A stretch of DNA of 64,000 bases from an uncultured Armatimonadia bacterium (GTDB taxonomy: Bacteria; Armatimonadota; Zipacnadia; CAVVLO01), in assembly GCA_963749155.1 (NCBI GenBank), contig CAVVLO010000001.1:448001-512000 (forward strand), given 5' to 3'. The translations under genes and the position numbers were made by a program. Positions 7,890 through 19,980 of this stretch are shown one piece after another. The notes beneath the pieces were generated by a model. That model saw only the letters and a program-made list of their open reading frames with translations. It did no database searches and was not told where the DNA came from. How positions within the stretch are numbered: position 1 is the stretch's first letter; each line of letters opens with the position of its first letter.

Positions 7890-9505
7890 ATGAAATCCTT
7901 TTTGTTCCTGGCAGGCATCGCCATGCTGCCTAGGCACTTCTTGGGATCGTGAAGGCCAAACCGCACCGGTGGCCCTCCACCGCGGGCTCTATGAGCTCAG
8001 CTTCGTGTCGCAGGTTCCTGTCGCCGACCCTTATCTGGGTCTGGAGCTGAAGGTCACTTTCACCCGGCCTGATTCCACTTCAGTCACTGTCGAGGGTTTC
8101 TACGATGGCTCGTTAGAGGGCAAATCAGTTTTCAAGGCGCGCGCCTACTCCGATGCGGTGGGCAAGTGGACCTGGCGCGCCACCTCCAATCTGGCGGACC
8201 TTGATGGGCAGAAGGGCGCCTTCAAAGTGACGCCCTCAGAGCTGCCTGGCAAGCTGCGCAAGCATCCTGGGGATCCCCATCAGTTCGCCTATGATAGCGG
8301 TCAGTGGTTCCTCCATATCGGCGATACCGGTTATCGGTACCTCACCGACACCGAACCCGAGTGGCAAGCCTATATTGATCAGGCCGTCCAGATGGGCGCG
8401 ACGAAGCTACGCGTCTGGTTCAGCAAGTCGCGCAGCGGGGTAGAGGCCCTTCTGGAGCCAGATCGCTCTGCGCTCAATCTCGAATACTGGCAGGAGATGG
8501 ACCGCAGGCTGCAATATGCGCTCAACCACTACCCCCAGGTGATTCTGCAACTCATCCCTTACGGCGAAGACCTCGACGAACTGCGCCGTTACGGCGAGGG
8601 GGATCGGATGGCGCAAGTTCATCGCCGCTTATTCTCAGGCCCGCTTCAGCGCCTACCCCAATGTGCTCTGGTGTGTCTCGAATGACCGCACTCTGGTCGC
8701 TGACGAGGCCGAGGCCACAGGCAACAAGGTGCATGCCTCTCTCATCGACCAGATCGCTCGGGATATGGCAGCGCGCGAGCCCTGGGGCACGCTCCTCACC
8801 AACCATCAGGCGCGCAACACTGGCTATGCCTTCGCGACGGCGCCCTGGTCCGACCTCATCACCCTCGAAGCCCTTGACCAGGTGACTGGCAACCTGTTGC
8901 TGGAATACCGTGAGAAGTCGGATGACCCGGTTATCAATGATGAAGACCGATACGAACTTTATCGCCCGCCGGCCCACCCGCGCTACTTCTTCCGCCGGCT
9001 GATGTGGGCAAGCCTCTTGTCGGGCGGCGCGGCGACTTATGGGGGCGCCAGGACCTACGAGCCTTATGATGGTCAGACGCGCGGGGTGCGGGGTTATTAT
9101 GATCTGAAAAAGGAAGGGCTCCTCTCCGGAGGCGCGGACGACTTTGTCCACATCCATACCTTTTTCGAGAAAACCGGGCTCACTTTGGTCGGGATGGAGC
9201 CTGCTGACGCGCTGGTTGGCGGCGACCCAAACCAGGCCAAAGCCATCGCAAGCGATTCGGCCATCATCGTCTACCTGCCCAATCCGGATGCTCCCTCACC
9301 GGAGCAAGCCACCGCGGCCAGAACCCCTGCTACTTGCTCGCTTCAGCTGCCGGAAGGCAATTGGGCTCTCTCGTGGTTCAACCCGCGCACCGGCAAGGGG
9401 CTGGAGGAGCCTCCTGTCACCGTAACTGGCGGCATTACGCCCTGTCACTGCCAGGCGCCCTTCACGGGAGATGCGGTGCTGGTGGCCAGGCGTACCGGCC
9501 GCTAG
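7890..9505 (+). CDS. Secreted DUF5060/DUF4038 apiosidase-like glycoside hydrolase with C-terminal collagen-binding-like domain; frameshifts near 7930 and 8615
   Basis: AAGGAG RBS and signal peptide from 7890; GFYDG, WFLHIGDT, SWFNPRTG, PFTGDAVL motifs; fragments join with single-base fixes. Confidence 0.75.
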
Positions 9506-14941: not shown

Positions 14942-15185
14942 CTGGCCGAAGCTCAGCCTGTTTCCCCGGAGAAAGAGGCCTTGCCCTCCGTAGCCTGGCG
15001 ACGCAGTCGCCAAAGGCGAAGGGGGGTTGCCATGGGACTTCGCCAAGGCTACGTCCCACACTGGCCGAAGCTCAGCGAAGATACTCTACCGATTAGCTGG
15101 CTTTCCCCCCAAAGCTTTCCACGAAGATACTCTACCGATTAGCTGGCCTGCCAGCCGAAGCTCGCCATCGGCGAGCGAAGGCTGG
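14942..15185. repeat. Cluster of GCCGAAGCT/CGAAG REP-like hairpins and a 26-bp direct repeat abutting the tmRNA 3' end
   Basis: CTGGCCGAAGCTCAGC at 14942 and 15061; CGAAGATACTCTACCGATTAGCTGGC at 15076 and 15122; hairpin 15151-15185. Confidence 0.8.
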
Positions 15186-15532
15186 TGGAGGCGGCGGGAA
15201 TTGAACCCGCGTCCGAAAAGCAGTGCTACAGCCACATCTACGAGCGTAGTCCGCCTTTAGGTCTCGCCTGGCTCACCCAGCGGACGCGGTTTACCTGGCC
15301 AGCCCGGTTAAAGTCTCGGTCAACCGTTCGGGCCGCCAGTTGACCAACAAGCCACAGTTTTGTGACGGTTCCCCTCGCCCCCCGTGGCCGGGGCGGGTTC
15401 ACCGGCTGCTAGTTAAGCAGCGATAGCCAGATTGTCGTTGGCTTTTTTAGCTTTGCCACACTTAACGGGCGTCGTGGCCGTCCCGGCTCGCAGCAACTGT
15501 CACTTGGCAATCCGTCGAAGCCGATCGCCCCC
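15183..15532 (-). ncRNA. ssrA: tmRNA, tag reading frame ANDNLAIAA* (15413-15442)
   Basis: 5' GGGGGCGAUCGGCUUCGAC and 3' GGUUCAAUUCCCGCCGCCUCCACCA with G3-U acceptor pair; internal GCC AAC GAC AAT CTG GCT ATC GCT GCT TAA. Confidence 0.97.
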
Positions 15533-15554
15533 ACTTGCTGTTACTTCAACACTT

Positions 15555-15574
15555 ATGATAGCACATCTGTTCCG
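15555..15574 (-). promoter_or_regulatory. tmRNA extended -10 promoter (TGcTATCAT) overlapping a LexA-like GAAC-N4-GTGC box
   Basis: Minus strand reads CGGAACAGATGTGCTATCAT ~22 nt upstream of the mature 5' end. Confidence 0.55.
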
Positions 15575-15605
15575 CTTTTGGATGGCCTTCTTGCGGTGAA
15601 CCCGC

Positions 15606-15752
15606 CTACACTTGCCCGCTCCAGCCTGCCCGAATCAGCATCACATCGAACTGCCACCAGGGCAGCTCATCCAGCCTTGGATCAAAGGGCCCCAGAAACC
15701 CATAAGCCCGCGCGACCAGCTCGCGCGCCCCAAGCTCTGGAGCCCTCATCAG
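15606..15752 (-). CDS. gpT-like -1 frameshift extension (48 aa) of the tail-assembly-chaperone-like gene; not in the ORF track
   Basis: The -1 frame after G GGA AAC reads LMRAPELGARELVARAYGFLGPFDPRLDELPWWQFDVMLIRAGWSGQV*. Confidence 0.7.
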   Translation of the reverse strand: MMRAPELGARELVARAYGFLGPFDPRLDELPWWQFDVMLIRAGWSGQV

Positions 15753-16420
15753 TTTCCCAGTTCAGCCTCGTTCCTCGGCTCCATCTCCTGATAAGCCTCA
15801 AGCAGCTTGTAGAACACCTCGGGCGCCAGTCCCCGCACTTCTTCGATCTCGGTAAAATACCGCGCGTCCTTCCCTGGCTCGAAGGTCGCCCGCAGCACTA
15901 CCTCGTACTCCCACTCTTCAACGAAAGCCAGTTTGGCCAGCTCGAGGCGACGCGCTTCCACTAGTCGCGCGTCCAGTTCGCCCTCTTCCAGCCTCACCAG
16001 TTCTTCCTCCAGCGCCTCTCTTACCGCCTGCCCATACTGCGCGCGCTTCTCGGCGACTGTTTTGAGTCTCTCCTCGTACCCCTTCTCGGCTTCTTCAAGC
16101 TCTGCTTCGCTTGCGCAGAAGCCCTTCGCTGGATCCCCCAGGGCAGGTTTCGAGGGGGTGGGGAAGCGATGTGACGCTTCCTCCTCGATCACCGGCATCT
16201 GCGCGGCCACGAGATAGCCTGCCTTCTTCTCCGACCGCCACGCAAGCGCCAGATCGTCCCTTGCTTCTTCCAGCCGCGCATCGGCTCGCTCCAGCGCGCT
16301 TCTCAAGGCCGCCTCTCGAGCGGCAACCCCGAGGGTGCGCAATTCTACTGCCTCCACTCCGCCAGCCCCATCCTCAAGTTCCAGCACCTGCTTCGTCCTG
16401 TAGAACTCGCTCAGCCGCAT
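15749..16420 (-). CDS. Phage tail assembly chaperone (gpG)-like protein
   Basis: Acidic helical 223 aa; N-terminal VELRTL strand; C-terminal FTEIEEVRGLAPEVFYKLLEAYQEM; ends CTG GGA AAC TGA slippery site. Confidence 0.65.
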   Translation of the reverse strand: MRLSEFYRTKQVLELEDGAGGVEAVELRTLGVAAREAALRSALERADARLEEARDDLALAWRSEKKAGYLVAAQMPVIEEEASHRFPTPSKPALGDPAKGFCASEAELEEAEKGYEERLKTVAEKRAQYGQAVREALEEELVRLEEGELDARLVEARRLELAKLAFVEEWEYEVVLRATFEPGKDARYFTEIEEVRGLAPEVFYKLLEAYQEMEPRNEAELGN

Positions 16421-16444
16421 CGTTTGCCCCTTTCTGCTTCAGCG

Positions 16445-17485
16445 CTACCTTACCGCTGTCGAGATCGTCGACTTTGCGAACGCCATATCGTTCGCCAGTT
16501 CTCTTCCAATCGCCGCGCCTGCATCCCTCGCCACCTTGCCCAGGTTGCCCGAGTAGTCCTGCAGGTTCACGATTACCGTCGGACTCGCTTTGGTGCTGCT
16601 TGCGCTTGTCCCCCCCGACATCGACAGGTTGTACAGGTACGGCGCGCTGTCCCACGTCTGGGGCGCGTTGTAAGCCTTCCCAACCTGTGACTTCGGTTTG
16701 CTCGATTTGCTGCCCCCGCCAAACAAGCTGAGCCCCAGCCCGACAACCGCGCCCACCGGCCCGCCAAGCGCGAACCCCTGCAACGCTCCCGACAGGGGCG
16801 ACAGTCCCCCGCTCTGAGCCTGGGTGTACATATCCGCCAGCCCGAACACCTGAGGCCACGTCCGGTCGCCGCCGATCCCGAAACCCGACAGGCTCCCCGC
16901 CTTTGAGAACTGCTGGCTGATCTGCTGGAACCATCCCTGCTGCCCCAGGCTTGCCTGAAGCTGGTTCGCCATCAACGTCCGAGTGCCGAAATACCCCCCT
17001 CGACTGTTGCCGAGGGCCATCGAGGCTAGCGCCTGCCCCAGGTATCTGTCCGCTGCCGTGCTTGCGGAGGCCGGCTTCTTGCCCGCCGCATCCGGCCCCC
17101 CAAGTTCTGGGATGTCTCCCGCCGCTGTTGCCGCCCACTGGCCTGCTCCCCCTGCCTTGCCACTCTGCCCACTTGCCAGGCCAGGCGCAGCTCCTACCGC
17201 ATCTGCCTGTGGAACACGCCACAGGTCCTTGCCTCCGCTCCCGATGCCGCCACCGCCGCTACTAGCGGCCACCTTCCGCAGCGCCTCCGCGAGCAAGCCT
17301 TCCAGCGAGCCTGTGCTCCGCTGCCAGCTCCCAGGCGATTCTGTGCCCACACCATTTTGCGCCAGCCGCTGGTTTGTCCGCCTCAGTTCCTCCGCAAGCC
17401 GACCGAAAGCCCCCTCGTTCAAGCTTCGCACGCTCTCGGTTAACTCGCCCACCTTTCTCGCTACCTGGTCCTCGCTGCCTGCCAT
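16445..17485 (-). CDS. Short tape-measure-protein-like protein (346 aa)
   Basis: GGAGG RBS; N-terminal coiled coil; Gly/Ala/Ser/Gln-rich; GALQGFALGGPVGAVVGLGLSLFGGG and C-terminal TVIVNL...AIGRELA resemble tape measure C-termini. Confidence 0.55.
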   Translation of the reverse strand: MAGSEDQVARKVGELTESVRSLNEGAFGRLAEELRRTNQRLAQNGVGTESPGSWQRSTGSLEGLLAEALRKVAASSGGGGIGSGGKDLWRVPQADAVGAAPGLASGQSGKAGGAGQWAATAAGDIPELGGPDAAGKKPASASTAADRYLGQALASMALGNSRGGYFGTRTLMANQLQASLGQQGWFQQISQQFSKAGSLSGFGIGGDRTWPQVFGLADMYTQAQSGGLSPLSGALQGFALGGPVGAVVGLGLSLFGGGSKSSKPKSQVGKAYNAPQTWDSAPYLYNLSMSGGTSASSTKASPTVIVNLQDYSGNLGKVARDAGAAIGRELANDMAFAKSTISTAVR

Positions 17486-17553
17486 CTTGTCCTGCCTCCG
17501 TTCTTGCGTCTGCCTACACCCTCTTCCCAGCCGCCGCGCCAGTTCTTCACGGA

Positions 17554-17648
17554 TTGTCATATATAATGACAAAGCGCCAGCCTCCAATTGCTCCGTAAGG
17601 CAATCTATGAATCAGCGCAATGTATTTATATTGACCAACGCTTGTCAA
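17554..17648 (-). promoter_or_regulatory. Sigma70-like promoter and two palindromic operators for the tail-like module
   Basis: Minus strand TTGACA-N18-TACATT; TTGAC-N8-GTCAA at 17631-17648; TTGTCAT-N5-ATGACAA at 17554-17572. Confidence 0.55.
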
Positions 17649-17708
17649 AAACATCTTATCCTTCGCCTTTGCTGCCTGTCCCCTCTCCCTTCGGAGATAA
17701 GCCTGACC

Positions 17709-17734
17709 GGGGTGCAGGGGCAAGCTGCCCCTGC
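17709..17734. repeat. REP-like palindrome GGGGT-GCAGGGGCA-agc-TGCCCCTGC
   Basis: 9-bp perfect inverted repeat at 17714-17734. Confidence 0.55.
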
Positions 17735-17768
17735 CTGGCTGCACCGTTGCCTCGCCTTTCCGCAGGGG

Positions 17769-17797
17769 TTGAACCTCTCTTGCTTCACTGCTATAAT
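17769..17797 (+). promoter_or_regulatory. Sigma70 promoter for tRNA-Val/thrS
   Basis: TTGAAC-N17-TATAAT with extended TG. Confidence 0.8.
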
Positions 17798-17835
17798 CTC
17801 GGAACTACGTCCCTTGGGAGGCGTACCAGTTGAGT

Positions 17836-17910
<75 letters not shown>

Positions 17911-17927
17911 CTCTACTGCACTAGCTG

Positions 17928-17964
17928 GCCTGCCACCGGCAGGCAGGCCTGCCCTTTGCAGGCC
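17928..17964. repeat. Two tandem GCCTGC/GCAGGC hairpins after tRNA-Val
   Basis: GCCTGCC-acc-GGCAGGC and GGCCTGC-ccttt-GCAGGCC. Confidence 0.5.
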
Positions 17965-18051
17965 CGGCTTCCCTCGGCAGGCTGCCTCGTTTGTTGCTCC
18001 TCTTTCGTCCCGGGCGCCCAGTAGGTTCCCTTGCACAGGAGTGTGATTTTC

Positions 18052-19980
18052 TTGTCACCAGTAGTTAAAATTACCTTGCCCGATGGCGCGCAGCTTGAGG
18101 CCCCCCAGGGCGCTACATTGCTCGAAGTCATCGCCCAGATAGGCCCCAGGCTTGCCAAAGCCGCCGTTGCCGCAATCGTAAACGGCCAGCTCCGCGATGT
18201 CCGCGATGCGGTGGAAGAAGACGCCACTCTCGAGGTGCTTACAGCCAAGGATCCCCGTGCCCTCGAGGTGCTCCGTCACAGTGCAAGCCACCTGATGGCC
18301 CAGGCTGTCCGACAGCTCTTCCCTGGCACGAAGGTCGCAATCGGCCCTTCCATCGCCGACGGTTTCTACTACGACTTCGACACCGAGGTCGCCTTCACTG
18401 AAGCTGATCTCGAAGCCATCGAATCGCGTATGAACGAGCTCGCCAAAGCCGATATCCCGCTCGAACGGATGATCCTGCCCGTTGCTGACGCCATCCGGCT
18501 TTTTGAAGAGCTGGAAGAGCCTTATAAAGTCGAGCTGCTTAAAGACCTTGAGGTTGAGACGGTCACGCTCTACAGGCAGGAGTCCTTCCTCGACCTTTGC
18601 CGGGGCCCCCACGTGCAGTCCACAGGTGCCCTTGCGGCCTTCAAATTGCTCTCGGTGGCTGGCGCCTACTGGCGCGGAGACGAGCACAACAAGATGCTTC
18701 AGCGCATCTACGGCACGGCCTTCGGCGATGCTGACGGTCTGGCTAAGCACCTGAATCTGCTTGAGGAAGCCAGGCGCCGCGACCACCGCAAGCTCGGTCA
18801 GGAACTCGGCCTTTTCAGCATCCAGGAAGCCGTTGGGCCTGGCCTCGTCCTGTTCCACCCCAAGGGCGCTCTGCTTCGCAAGCTCATCGAAGATTTCGAG
18901 CGCGATATGCACCTGGCCAACGGCTACGACCTCGTCGTCACGCCCCATATCGCCAGTCAGGACCTCTGGGACACTTCTGGCCACACGAAGTTCTATACCG
19001 ACAATATGTTCTTCCTGAACGTCGAAGATCAGGATTATGTCCTTAAACCGATGAACTGCCCCTTCCACATCCTGATTTACAAGTCGTCCACGCGCAGTTA
19101 TCGCGACCTGCCGATGCGCTATTTCGAGCTGGGTACGGTCTACCGCTACGAGCGCTCCGGCGTGCTGCACGGCCTTTTGCGCGTCAGGGGCTTCACCCAG
19201 GATGACGCCCATCTTTTCTGCACGCCGTTGCAGCTTCAGGCAGAGCTTATCAAGCTCATCGCTTTCGTGAAGAATATCCTCGGCGCCTTCGGTTTTTCCG
19301 AGTATAAGGTCTATCTCAGCACCCAGCCCGAGAAGTCCGTTGGCGCCCAGGACCACTGGGATATGGCCACCGAAGCCCTGCGCCAGGCCCTTGAGGCTAC
19401 CGGCCTTGAGTACCAGGTTGATCCAGGCGAGGGCGTCTTCTACGGCCCCAAGATTGACATCAAACTTGTGGATGCCCTCGGCCGCCAGTGGCAGTGCTCG
19501 ACCCTCCAGGTGGATTTCAATATCCCCGAGCGGTTCGATGCCACCTATATCGGCGAGGATGGCCAGGAGCACCGCACGGTTATGGTCCACCGCGCCTTGC
19601 TTGGCTCTCTGGAGCGTTTCATTGGCTGCCTTATAGAGCATTACGCGGGCGCCTTCCCGATGTGGCTGGCTCCCGTCCAGGCTGTCGTCATACCCATCGC
19701 CGAGCGCCATCACGATTATGCCAAGCAGGTTGTGGCGAAACTGAAAGCCGCCAAGGTCCGAGTGACTCTTGATGCTCGCTCCGAAAGCGTCGGCTACAAG
19801 ATACGCGAGGCCCAGACCCAGAAGTTGCCTTATATGCTTGTGGTTGGCGACCGCGAAGCCGAGGCAGGCCAGGTGGCTGTCCGCCGCCGCGATGGCACCG
19901 ACGAAGGCGCGCTCGATTTGGCAGCTCTTGCTCTTCGCCTGGCCGATGAAGGCAAGGCGCCAGAGTTCACGCTGGACTAA
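18052..19980 (+). CDS. thrS: Threonyl-tRNA synthetase
   Basis: TGS domain, LRHSASH, DLCRGPH, RDHRKLG, KPMNCP, FTQDDAH, HRALLGSLERF; TTG start after AGGAG. Confidence 0.98.
   Translation: MSPVVKITLPDGAQLEAPQGATLLEVIAQIGPRLAKAAVAAIVNGQLRDVRDAVEEDATLEVLTAKDPRALEVLRHSASHLMAQAVRQLFPGTKVAIGPSIADGFYYDFDTEVAFTEADLEAIESRMNELAKADIPLERMILPVADAIRLFEELEEPYKVELLKDLEVETVTLYRQESFLDLCRGPHVQSTGALAAFKLLSVAGAYWRGDEHNKMLQRIYGTAFGDADGLAKHLNLLEEARRRDHRKLGQELGLFSIQEAVGPGLVLFHPKGALLRKLIEDFERDMHLANGYDLVVTPHIASQDLWDTSGHTKFYTDNMFFLNVEDQDYVLKPMNCPFHILIYKSSTRSYRDLPMRYFELGTVYRYERSGVLHGLLRVRGFTQDDAHLFCTPLQLQAELIKLIAFVKNILGAFGFSEYKVYLSTQPEKSVGAQDHWDMATEALRQALEATGLEYQVDPGEGVFYGPKIDIKLVDALGRQWQCSTLQVDFNIPERFDATYIGEDGQEHRTVMVHRALLGSLERFIGCLIEHYAGAFPMWLAPVQAVVIPIAERHHDYAKQVVAKLKAAKVRVTLDARSESVGYKIREAQTQKLPYMLVVGDREAEAGQVAVRRRDGTDEGALDLAALALRLADEGKAPEFTLD

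Follow-up and report, generated by a model that had tools for sequence, protein, structure and literature searches.

A probable mini tape measure gene and its frameshifting tail assembly chaperone gene, apart from other phage genes, between tmRNA and tRNA-Val in an Armatimonadota chromosome

The DNA analyzed here, a window of 64,000 nucleotides (nt) from the genome of an uncultured Armatimonadia bacterium (C1:448001-512000; positions given below without a locus or contig name are window coordinates), contains a small gene module between the genes of the transfer-messenger RNA (tmRNA) and tRNA-Val. The module lies on the minus strand and comprises, in the direction of reading, gene1, gene2 and a third open reading frame (ORF), ORF3. 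Gene1 (16445..17485) encodes a mini tape-measure-like protein. Its longest ORF in the ORF list extends from 16445 to 17587 and would yield 380 amino acids from a TTG codon; because all three database homologues begin at the ATG at 17485, we assigned a length of 346 amino acids. Gene2 (15749..16420), recognized from the ORF list, phmmer and alignment as a homologue of G-type tail assembly chaperones, encodes 223 amino acids. ORF3 (15606..15749; ORF list and phmmer) is the -1-frame "T" extension of gene2, with 47 codons from its own ATG and 48 after the slip; its ATG shares one base with the TGA of gene2. The stop codon of gene1 and the ATG of gene2 are separated by 24 nt (16421-16444) that contain a ribosome-binding site. 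Both genes have such a site, GGAGG 9 nt ahead of the gene1 ATG and AAAGGGG 6 nt ahead of the gene2 ATG, which confirms an initial annotation of this DNA that had described two intact, co-oriented and well-initiated genes 24 nt apart.

The end of gene2 reads ...CTG GGA AAC TGA, and the -1 frame continues without a stop for a further 48 codons. A slippery heptamer of the X_XXY_YYZ type, G_GGA_AAC (15752..15758, minus strand; sequence and alignment), abuts the TGA in register with the codons for Leu-Gly-Asn. It is followed after 4 nt by a long stem-loop predicted by folding (15685..15747, minus strand), a candidate stimulator of frameshifting. The minimum free energy over a stretch of 101 nt is -43.8 kcal/mol (z = -2.2), and 4 of 200 shuffled sequences were at least as stable.

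In long-tailed phages the frameshift between G and GT is conserved. The lambda-type protein gpG coats the tape measure protein and the T domain of gpGT recruits tube subunits. G proteins usually comprise about 110-140 amino acids, and tail assembly chaperones are highly diverged in sequence. A conserved programmed -1 frameshift in their genes was reportedly described by Xu, Hendrix and Duda in 2004.

A phmmer comparison of the three window proteins with all six-frame ORFs of the prophage loci described below placed gene2 and ORF3 in this context. Gene2 matches the gene that occupies the slot behind the tube and ahead of the mini tape measure, with E 2e-6 to 2e-4 in L015, L017 and L018 and E 4e-7 and 2e-6 in L020 and L021; the latter two loci were added by a scan of genome contigs with the chaperone alignment, and each has three matches in the gene order of L015, L017 and L018. 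In all five loci ORF3 matches an ORF in the -1 frame that shares the 3' end of the phage G gene (E 3e-5 to 1e-3 overall, 3e-4 to 1e-3 in L015, L017 and L018), and it has the motif D..L..LPWW in common with these extensions. The second ORF is in the -1 frame at each of the five loci, and a heptamer C_CCA_AAA is found in the correct register at codons for Leu-Pro-Lys. These codons fall opposite the Leu-Gly-Asn codons of G_GGA_AAC in the window when the proteins are aligned over their full length (26-30% identity). The heptamers of window and phages thus differ in their letters but agree in position and in the X_XXY_YYZ pattern. Because gene2 is homologous to the gene in this slot and the slip site occupies the aligned codon in all five prophages, we regard gene2 together with ORF3 as a chaperone of the G/GT type with a conserved -1 frameshift. 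The frameshift extension of the initial annotation is real at the level of the sequence.

Two overlapping frames, a heptamer near the end of the first, a short -1 extension and the location of the phage homologues between tube and tape measure genes are features that gene2 and ORF3 share with lambda-type gpG/gpGT. Unlike those proteins, gene2 has no sequence match to described chaperone families in Pfam, PHROGs, NCBIfam or PDB sequences, its AlphaFold model (predicted local distance difference test score, pLDDT, 69) gave no Foldseek match to PDB folds at E <= 0.001, and the profile of the chaperone alignment retrieved nothing from the PDB sequences. At 223 amino acids gene2 is also longer than the usual G protein. 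In the window itself it is not situated between tube and tape measure genes, since it follows gene1 in a genome without a tube gene. The chaperone gene directly precedes the mini tape measure gene in all five phage loci, among which an upstream tube recognized by Pfam was confirmed only in L018. With the opposite order, which the initial annotation had noted correctly, the window module appears as a rearranged copy. Only three relatives of gene2 were found in a database of 5.8 billion proteins (96, 93 and 83% identity). The most distant of them and a gene1 homologue of 71% identity each have a longest contig of 2,349 bp, which we took to be one and the same contig. A complex prediction for gene1 and gene2, run without controls, scored 0.00 in both runs and gives no verdict either way.

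The gene1 protein is composed of an N-terminal coiled coil (residues ~1-47), a variable linker rich in Gly, Ala and Ser (~48-144), a conserved middle region and a C-terminal module (~214-346). The module contains a hydrophobic Gly-zipper segment, GFALGGPVGAVVGLGLSLFGG, followed by AYNAP..W...PYLYNL. The same protein database holds three relatives of gene1 (99, 71 and 41% identity; 346, 346 and 355 amino acids), and beyond these neither the database nor the profile search revealed relatives of the coiled coil and the linker. A search of 1.84 billion representative proteins with the family profile resulted in eight matches at E <= 1e-3. Apart from two that belong to the family itself, they comprise four long proteins (894, 1245, 1319 and 2009 amino acids) matched in their C-terminal parts (E 1.7e-4 to 7.5e-4) and two short ones (228 and 248 amino acids). 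All four long proteins match PHROG tape-measure families and three of them carry PF10145. The pairwise alignments extend past the Gly zipper and cover G[FY]ALGGPVGA.VG..L.L.GG, a polar linker of 10-15 residues and YNAP...Y.Y. Gene1 resembles PF10145-bearing tape measures such as P0008, P0010 and P0012 in its C-terminal Gly zipper and YNAP...Y.Y module, and differs from them in its length (346 versus 894-2009 amino acids) and in having no PF10145 domain. No tape-measure family model of Pfam or PHROGs matches gene1 itself. Of the profile and structure searches suggested with the initial annotation, the former thus connect the C-terminal third of gene1 with the C-termini of tape measures, and the fold search with gene2 ended without a PDB match.

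Of 400 other genomes of the phylum, 6 contain the gene1 module, each time within an ORF of 261-332 amino acids. Homologues of 250-330 amino acids occupy the tape-measure slot, after the chaperone and before the hub or tip gene, in L014, L015, L017, L018, L020 and L021. Unlike these prophage homologues, gene1 in the window is not followed by a hub gene. At about 0.15 nm of tail per residue of a tape measure protein, 346 residues correspond arithmetically to about 50 nm. The predicted model of gene1 is of low confidence (pLDDT 46), too poor for a fold search; as in tape measures, the protein is predicted to be mostly helical and to require partners for folding.

A comparison of the mini tape measure alignment with PDB sequences gave a single match, the Gly-zipper stretch of the crAss001 cargo protein gp45 (7qog_M, E 1.4e-4), spanning profile positions 144-199. 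We rejected it as a sign of family membership and read it as a common membrane-insertion motif; it hints that such a motif is common to ejected phage proteins.

On the strength of these homologies to the tube - G/GT - mini tape measure - hub modules of Armatimonadota prophages, including the slip site in five of five, gene1 is very probably a mini tape measure and gene2 with its -1 ORF very probably a chaperone of the G/GT type, as had been supposed from the initial reading.

Among the prophage loci that carry the homologues, L018 shows, one after the other, an SPP1-like portal, an SU10-like major capsid protein, a glycosyltransferase of 735 amino acids, two small genes, a Phage_tube_2 tube, a gene of 251 amino acids, the module protein (270 amino acids), a YQBQ-like protein of 918 amino acids, a protein of 808 amino acids and an M15 peptidase. 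L017, L015 and L014 follow the same logic of arrangement, and L014 additionally contains a Mu gpT-like capsid gene. Capsid genes of the Mu gpT-like or SU10-like kind and SPP1-like portal genes are found near these tail modules. A Phage_tube_2 tube gene and a gene of ~230-250 amino acids stand ahead of the module ORF in L014 and L018. The YQBQ-like, hub-type protein comes directly after the module ORF in L017 and L018 and two small ORFs later in L015; in L014 this place is taken by a protein of 859 amino acids that belongs to no family. L016, a contig of 5.4 kb, is too short to be judged; its module gene is followed by an ORF of 815 amino acids, comparable to L014. L014, L015, L017, L018, L020 and L021 belong to an apparently undescribed lineage of Armatimonadota prophages, which, besides the portal, capsid, Phage_tube_2 tube, frameshifting chaperone, mini tape measure, YQBQ-like hub and M15 peptidase genes, includes a GT4+GT2 glycosyltransferase of ~700 amino acids within the structural module and in which most tail proteins are without a Pfam or PHROG family. 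In L015 (7730-9079) the chaperone-like region is the C-terminal part (approximately residues 303-506 of the open frame) of an ORF of at least 449 amino acids, which may have arisen by fusion to a tail gene lying upstream or reflect a mis-set start.

A second orphan mini tape measure, P0007 (248 amino acids; L013 8147-8893, G280:C249), was observed beside a BatA/VWA gene, the his operon and a YhcG nuclease gene. Nothing else from the related prophages L014 and L016 is encoded on its contig of 10.4 kb. Orphan mini tape measures therefore recur in the phylum, which fits repeated exaptation or repeated decay.

In the window the module stands alone. We scanned 49 ORFs, i.e. the 57 ORFs of at least 100 amino acids minus nine already identified (cysNC, thrS, infC, pheS, pheT, gene1, gene2 and two antisense ORFs) plus the ORF of a DUF1801 protein, and none of them matches a PHROG family for head, tail, connector, lysis or integration at E <= 1e-10. 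There is no integrase, replication or packaging gene in the window, and no PHROG integration or replication match near the locus. Searches of the whole genome (4.17 Mb in 7 contigs, 100% complete by markers, 5.9% contamination) gave no match to PF10145, PF05065, PF04860, PF03354, PF04984, PF04865 or PF03237. The only two tyrosine recombinases (PF00589) of the genome are encoded at C1:143752 and C2:1110209, both outside the window. A tblastn search of the genome with every ORF of at least 80 amino acids from seven phage-bearing loci returned only housekeeping look-alikes, such as an S49 peptidase adjoining polA and glycosyltransferases. By the seven Pfam families and the tblastn search with prophage proteins, the genome has no gene for a tube, hub, capsid, portal or terminase. 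No direct repeats marking the limits of an element were found either, the only repeats being short and at chance level. The initial annotation had likewise recorded no tube, sheath, baseplate, capsid, terminase or integrase gene and no duplicated attachment site in the 64 kb, and its statement on the absence of other phage genes holds. None of the three window proteins retrieved anything from Pfam, PHROGs, NCBIfam or PADLOC.

The distribution of the genes is narrow. Gene1 and gene2 are absent from the 40 nearest relatives, all of which belong only to the same class, and gene1 is absent from 78 other genomes of the class, where the three weak matches seen are interrupted by stop codons and confined to the low-complexity linker. 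Locus searches with the gene1 family alignment found nothing in metagenome, viral or genome contigs, nor did searches with P0003 in metagenome contigs or with the chaperone alignment in viral contigs. In 12 relatives of the class the region around the tmRNA gene, to ~6 kb in either direction as far as the contig extended, contains no cysNC, sulfotransferase, DUF1801, thrS, infC, pheS, gene1, gene2 or tRNA-Val gene; no "empty site" can be inferred from relatives at that distance.

The locus itself is present, at ~95-99% identity, in contigs of four sequencing runs from four studies, which sampled metagenomes of sediment, a digester, wastewater and a cave. Contigs X1, X5 and X9 span tmRNA, ORF3 and gene2, and X4 (2,456 nt, 58 differences) spans gene2, gene1, tRNA-Val and thrS. 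Of the 249 differences to the window 40 are listed in our comparison, with 12 further rows of insertions or deletions beyond those listed. Among the differences listed there is no insertion or deletion in a coding region. Those in gene1 (n = 25) comprise 16 synonymous and 9 nonsynonymous changes, against ~25% synonymous expected for random change, and one of the nine replacements falls in the C-terminal module. ORF3 is intact in all four database variants, each of which has one to three conservative changes. Between gene1 and the homologue of 71% identity, which is equal in length, the N-terminal coil is 94% identical, the linker 45%, the middle region 72% and the C-terminal module 84%, a pattern that points to constraint on individual domains. 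The genes look maintained and not decaying, which weakens the reading as a plainly decayed remnant and has no bearing on function. These substitution patterns suggest that the pair is probably kept by selection for a benefit to the host.

Upstream of gene1 we observed a candidate promoter of the sigma-70 type, TTGACA-18-TACATT (17619..17648, minus strand; 10 of 12 consensus bases), whose outer end coincides with the upper coordinate of the segment in the initial annotation. Two sigma-70-like sites were found in 15000-18100, where 0.5 are expected. Judged by this consensus match, the module may be transcribed from a host-type promoter of its own. The leader of gene1 also contains a perfect 7+7 palindrome, TTGTCAT-N5-ATGACAA (17554..17572, minus strand), operator-like in sequence and without a known binder. 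It is the single full match in the 4.17-Mb genome; six loose matches to its core elsewhere look unrelated. The base at 17553, just beside the palindrome, is changed in three of the four strain runs, and no change within the palindrome is among the 40 of 249 differences listed. The promoter and operators assigned to the module at first are thus represented by a candidate and by a palindrome, the latter of which is not shared with any other site of the genome.

The tmRNA gene (15183..15532, minus strand; ARAGORN and Rfam; tag ANDNLAIAA), the sole tmRNA match of the genome above the cut-off, is co-oriented with the module and begins 73 nt downstream of ORF3. The gene for tRNA-Val(GAC) (17836..17910, plus strand; ARAGORN and Rfam) diverges from the module on the other side. 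Both RNA genes consequently have the module at their 5' side, as had been stated at the outset. No terminator-like site is found between the module and the tmRNA gene ssrA directly downstream on the same strand. Housekeeping genes surround this segment, with cysNC, a sulfotransferase gene and the gene of the DUF1801 protein at one flank and thrS, infC, pheS and pheT at the other. The GC content at third codon positions of the module (0.71-0.76) lies inside the span of 0.65-0.79 of the adjacent housekeeping genes.

We tentatively read the locus as an exapted remnant of phage tail assembly that most likely acts against related phages. Since the known partner of T is the tube and the genome has none, the simplest use of the retained T extension would be for a tube protein that arrives with a phage. 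A resident complex of ruler and chaperone could capture tube or hub proteins of the invader into dead-end tails or tails of the wrong length. Alternatively, the Gly-zipper C-terminal module of gene1 could block the membrane step of DNA entry. The likeliest benefit of the pair would then be interference with infecting phages of the donor type, a suggestion that we make with reserve. A tail-assembly decoy, one of the options of the initial annotation, would be a mechanism of this kind. More doubtful is the fuller version of this idea, a fixed, non-mobile chromosomal immunity derived from a domesticated tail-initiation pair. Here the host would constitutively produce G/GT-coated mini tape measures, and retention of the frameshift would leave T able to grip tube subunits. 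Upon infection by a donor-type phage, the complexes would take up tube or hub proteins or fill the membrane site of the tape measure, and the result would be dead tails or failed entry.

Tail assembly as a target of defense has precedents. As far as the parts of the reports used here go, the activity of Tab (tail assembly blocker) is directed at the tape measure protein of the invader (PMC10884400), and the Tai systems provide another example of defense at this stage (PMC11364771). In this respect both resemble the role proposed for the window pair. Unlike that pair, they are encoded by prophages or satellites and are not described in those parts as homologues of tape measures or chaperones; the comparison is one of descriptions only.

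Several observations speak against this reading of the locus. None of the three window proteins matches a defense model of PADLOC-DB 2.0 at E <= 0.1; this library of 2023 may predate Tab and Tai. The neighborhood is one of housekeeping genes and not a defense island. The gene1 homologues of 71 and 41% identity may sit in live phages, so that the orphan state may not be deeply conserved. The lone P0007 demonstrates that solitary remnants of such prophages occur, which fits decay as well as exaptation. The ratio of synonymous to other changes is a count on contigs instead of a full codon alignment, and it covers the 25 differences in gene1 that are among the 40 listed of a total of 249. The homology of gene1 and gene2 to phage proteins is distant (21-30% identity, E 1e-3 to 1e-10). 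Finally, the RNA sequencing runs contain only about 0.10 of the sequence words, a share that corresponds approximately to the size of the tmRNA.

The pair could instead be the neutral leftover of a dead prophage, the rest of which was deleted, useless to the host and simply undecayed so far. Genes for tRNA and tmRNA, such as those flanking the module, are classic hot spots of integration, and with the absence of the genes from the 78 class genomes and the 40 nearest relatives, the second lone mini tape measure in G280 on its 10.4-kb contig and the lack of a match to any known defense family this explanation gains some weight. It has to account, however, for three frames that are open in every variant seen, for a slip site and downstream hairpin that have been kept, for the 16 synonymous versus 9 other changes among the gene1 differences listed where ~25% synonymous are expected, and for the strong dependence of identity on domain in the comparison with the 71% homologue. 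Moreover, a reversed order with a tidy 24-nt gap and a ribosome-binding site needs several precise events, phage debris is found on neither side, and the module sits 5' of both RNA genes. We consider such a leftover unlikely, if still credible. For the decayed remnant mentioned in the initial annotation this means that plain decay is weakened by the open frames and the synonymous excess among the differences listed, and that the existence of lone remnants, as in P0007, fits decay and exaptation equally well.

A second possibility is a partial tail-assembly pathway of the satellite type, or its relic, in which the element's own chaperone and ruler build chimeric tails from parts of a helper phage for the transfer of the element's own or the host's DNA. 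The retention of the T domain in a genome without a gene for the tube, its partner, would be in line with this. A model is provided by the PLE (phage-inducible chromosomal island-like element) satellites of Vibrio cholerae, which according to the excerpted description carry tac, tmp and the baseplate hub gene bhuB as a "partial tail assembly pathway" (PMC12987554). On comparison with that description, tac-tmp-bhuB appears to be the closest architectural precedent for the window pair: in both cases chaperone and tape measure genes persist apart from a complete phage, with no tube, sheath or head gene at the same locus or element. In contrast to the two fixed genes in the window, which have no integrase, PLEs are described there as mobile islands with an integrase, replication functions, a hub gene and many other genes. 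The window also lacks replication and packaging genes, the PF00589 matches are far off, bounding direct repeats are missing apart from short ones at chance level, the flanks are thrS/infC/pheST and cysNC, and the locus is fixed at one place in strains from four studies. This explanation is accordingly improbable.

The pair might also have been recruited to a cellular task that is unrelated to phages, with gene1, for example, as a membrane-inserted Gly-zipper protein in need of a chaperone. The hydrophobic Gly-zipper segment, the apparent maintenance by selection and the housekeeping surroundings, directly upstream of ssrA with no terminator-like site between, are all compatible with such a task. 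On the other hand, the tube-recruiting T extension and the frameshift have been kept, for which there is no obvious use without a tube, and a distribution as narrow as three relatives each of gene1 and gene2 among 5.8 billion proteins is unlike that of a cellular function. We assign a small probability to this explanation.

Last, the pair could be one locus of a split tailocin or gene transfer agent with its tube, hub and head genes elsewhere in the genome, an option raised in the initial annotation for which the very short ruler, suitable for a short-tailed particle such as a gene transfer agent, and the intact genes with a promoter candidate of their own may be cited, and which is very improbable given a marker-complete genome of 7 contigs without a match to the seven structural Pfam families, a tblastn search with prophage ORFs that finds only housekeeping look-alikes, and a leader palindrome that is unique, so that the postulated structural genes under a shared operator were found neither by their proteins nor by their operator.

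Tape measure and G/GT genes are usually seen only in complete tail modules, and here they are found alone, in reversed order, with an intact frameshift and with signs of purifying selection. If the exapted pair does confer immunity, it would be the first defense built of a tape measure and its frameshifting chaperone, and the programmed frameshift would have outlived the virus that invented it. Any use of the pair by the host would add a new building block to tail-assembly defenses such as Tab and Tai and to the strategy of the PLEs to bring their own ruler, and it would mean that recoding signals can pass from phages to cellular genes. Independent of function, families of very short tape measures (250-355 amino acids) with matching slip-site chaperones exist in Armatimonadota prophages, and both families match no Pfam, PHROG or NCBIfam model.

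Three further features of the window were noted. A direct similarity of 21 nt between 15140-15160 and 17922-17942 was considered as the boundary of an element and rejected: with 18 of 21 identical bases it is at chance level, one of 17 such families in 5 kb. Both copies are located just past the 3' ends of the tmRNA and tRNA-Val genes, in hairpin-forming, terminator-like sequence. Directly downstream of the 3' end of the tmRNA gene there are two tandem 46-nt repeats (15076-15167, and 14942-15076), each with a stretch resembling a tRNA D-arm, AGCTAATCGGTAGAGTA. These repeats vary among strains; the contig of one run is shorter by 46 nt, and another has 13 nt in place of 178 nt. At 7969-9505 two overlapping ORFs contain DUF5060 in the first and only positions 145-316 of an apiosidase-like catalytic domain in the second, and may represent one gene split by a frameshift or an assembly error.

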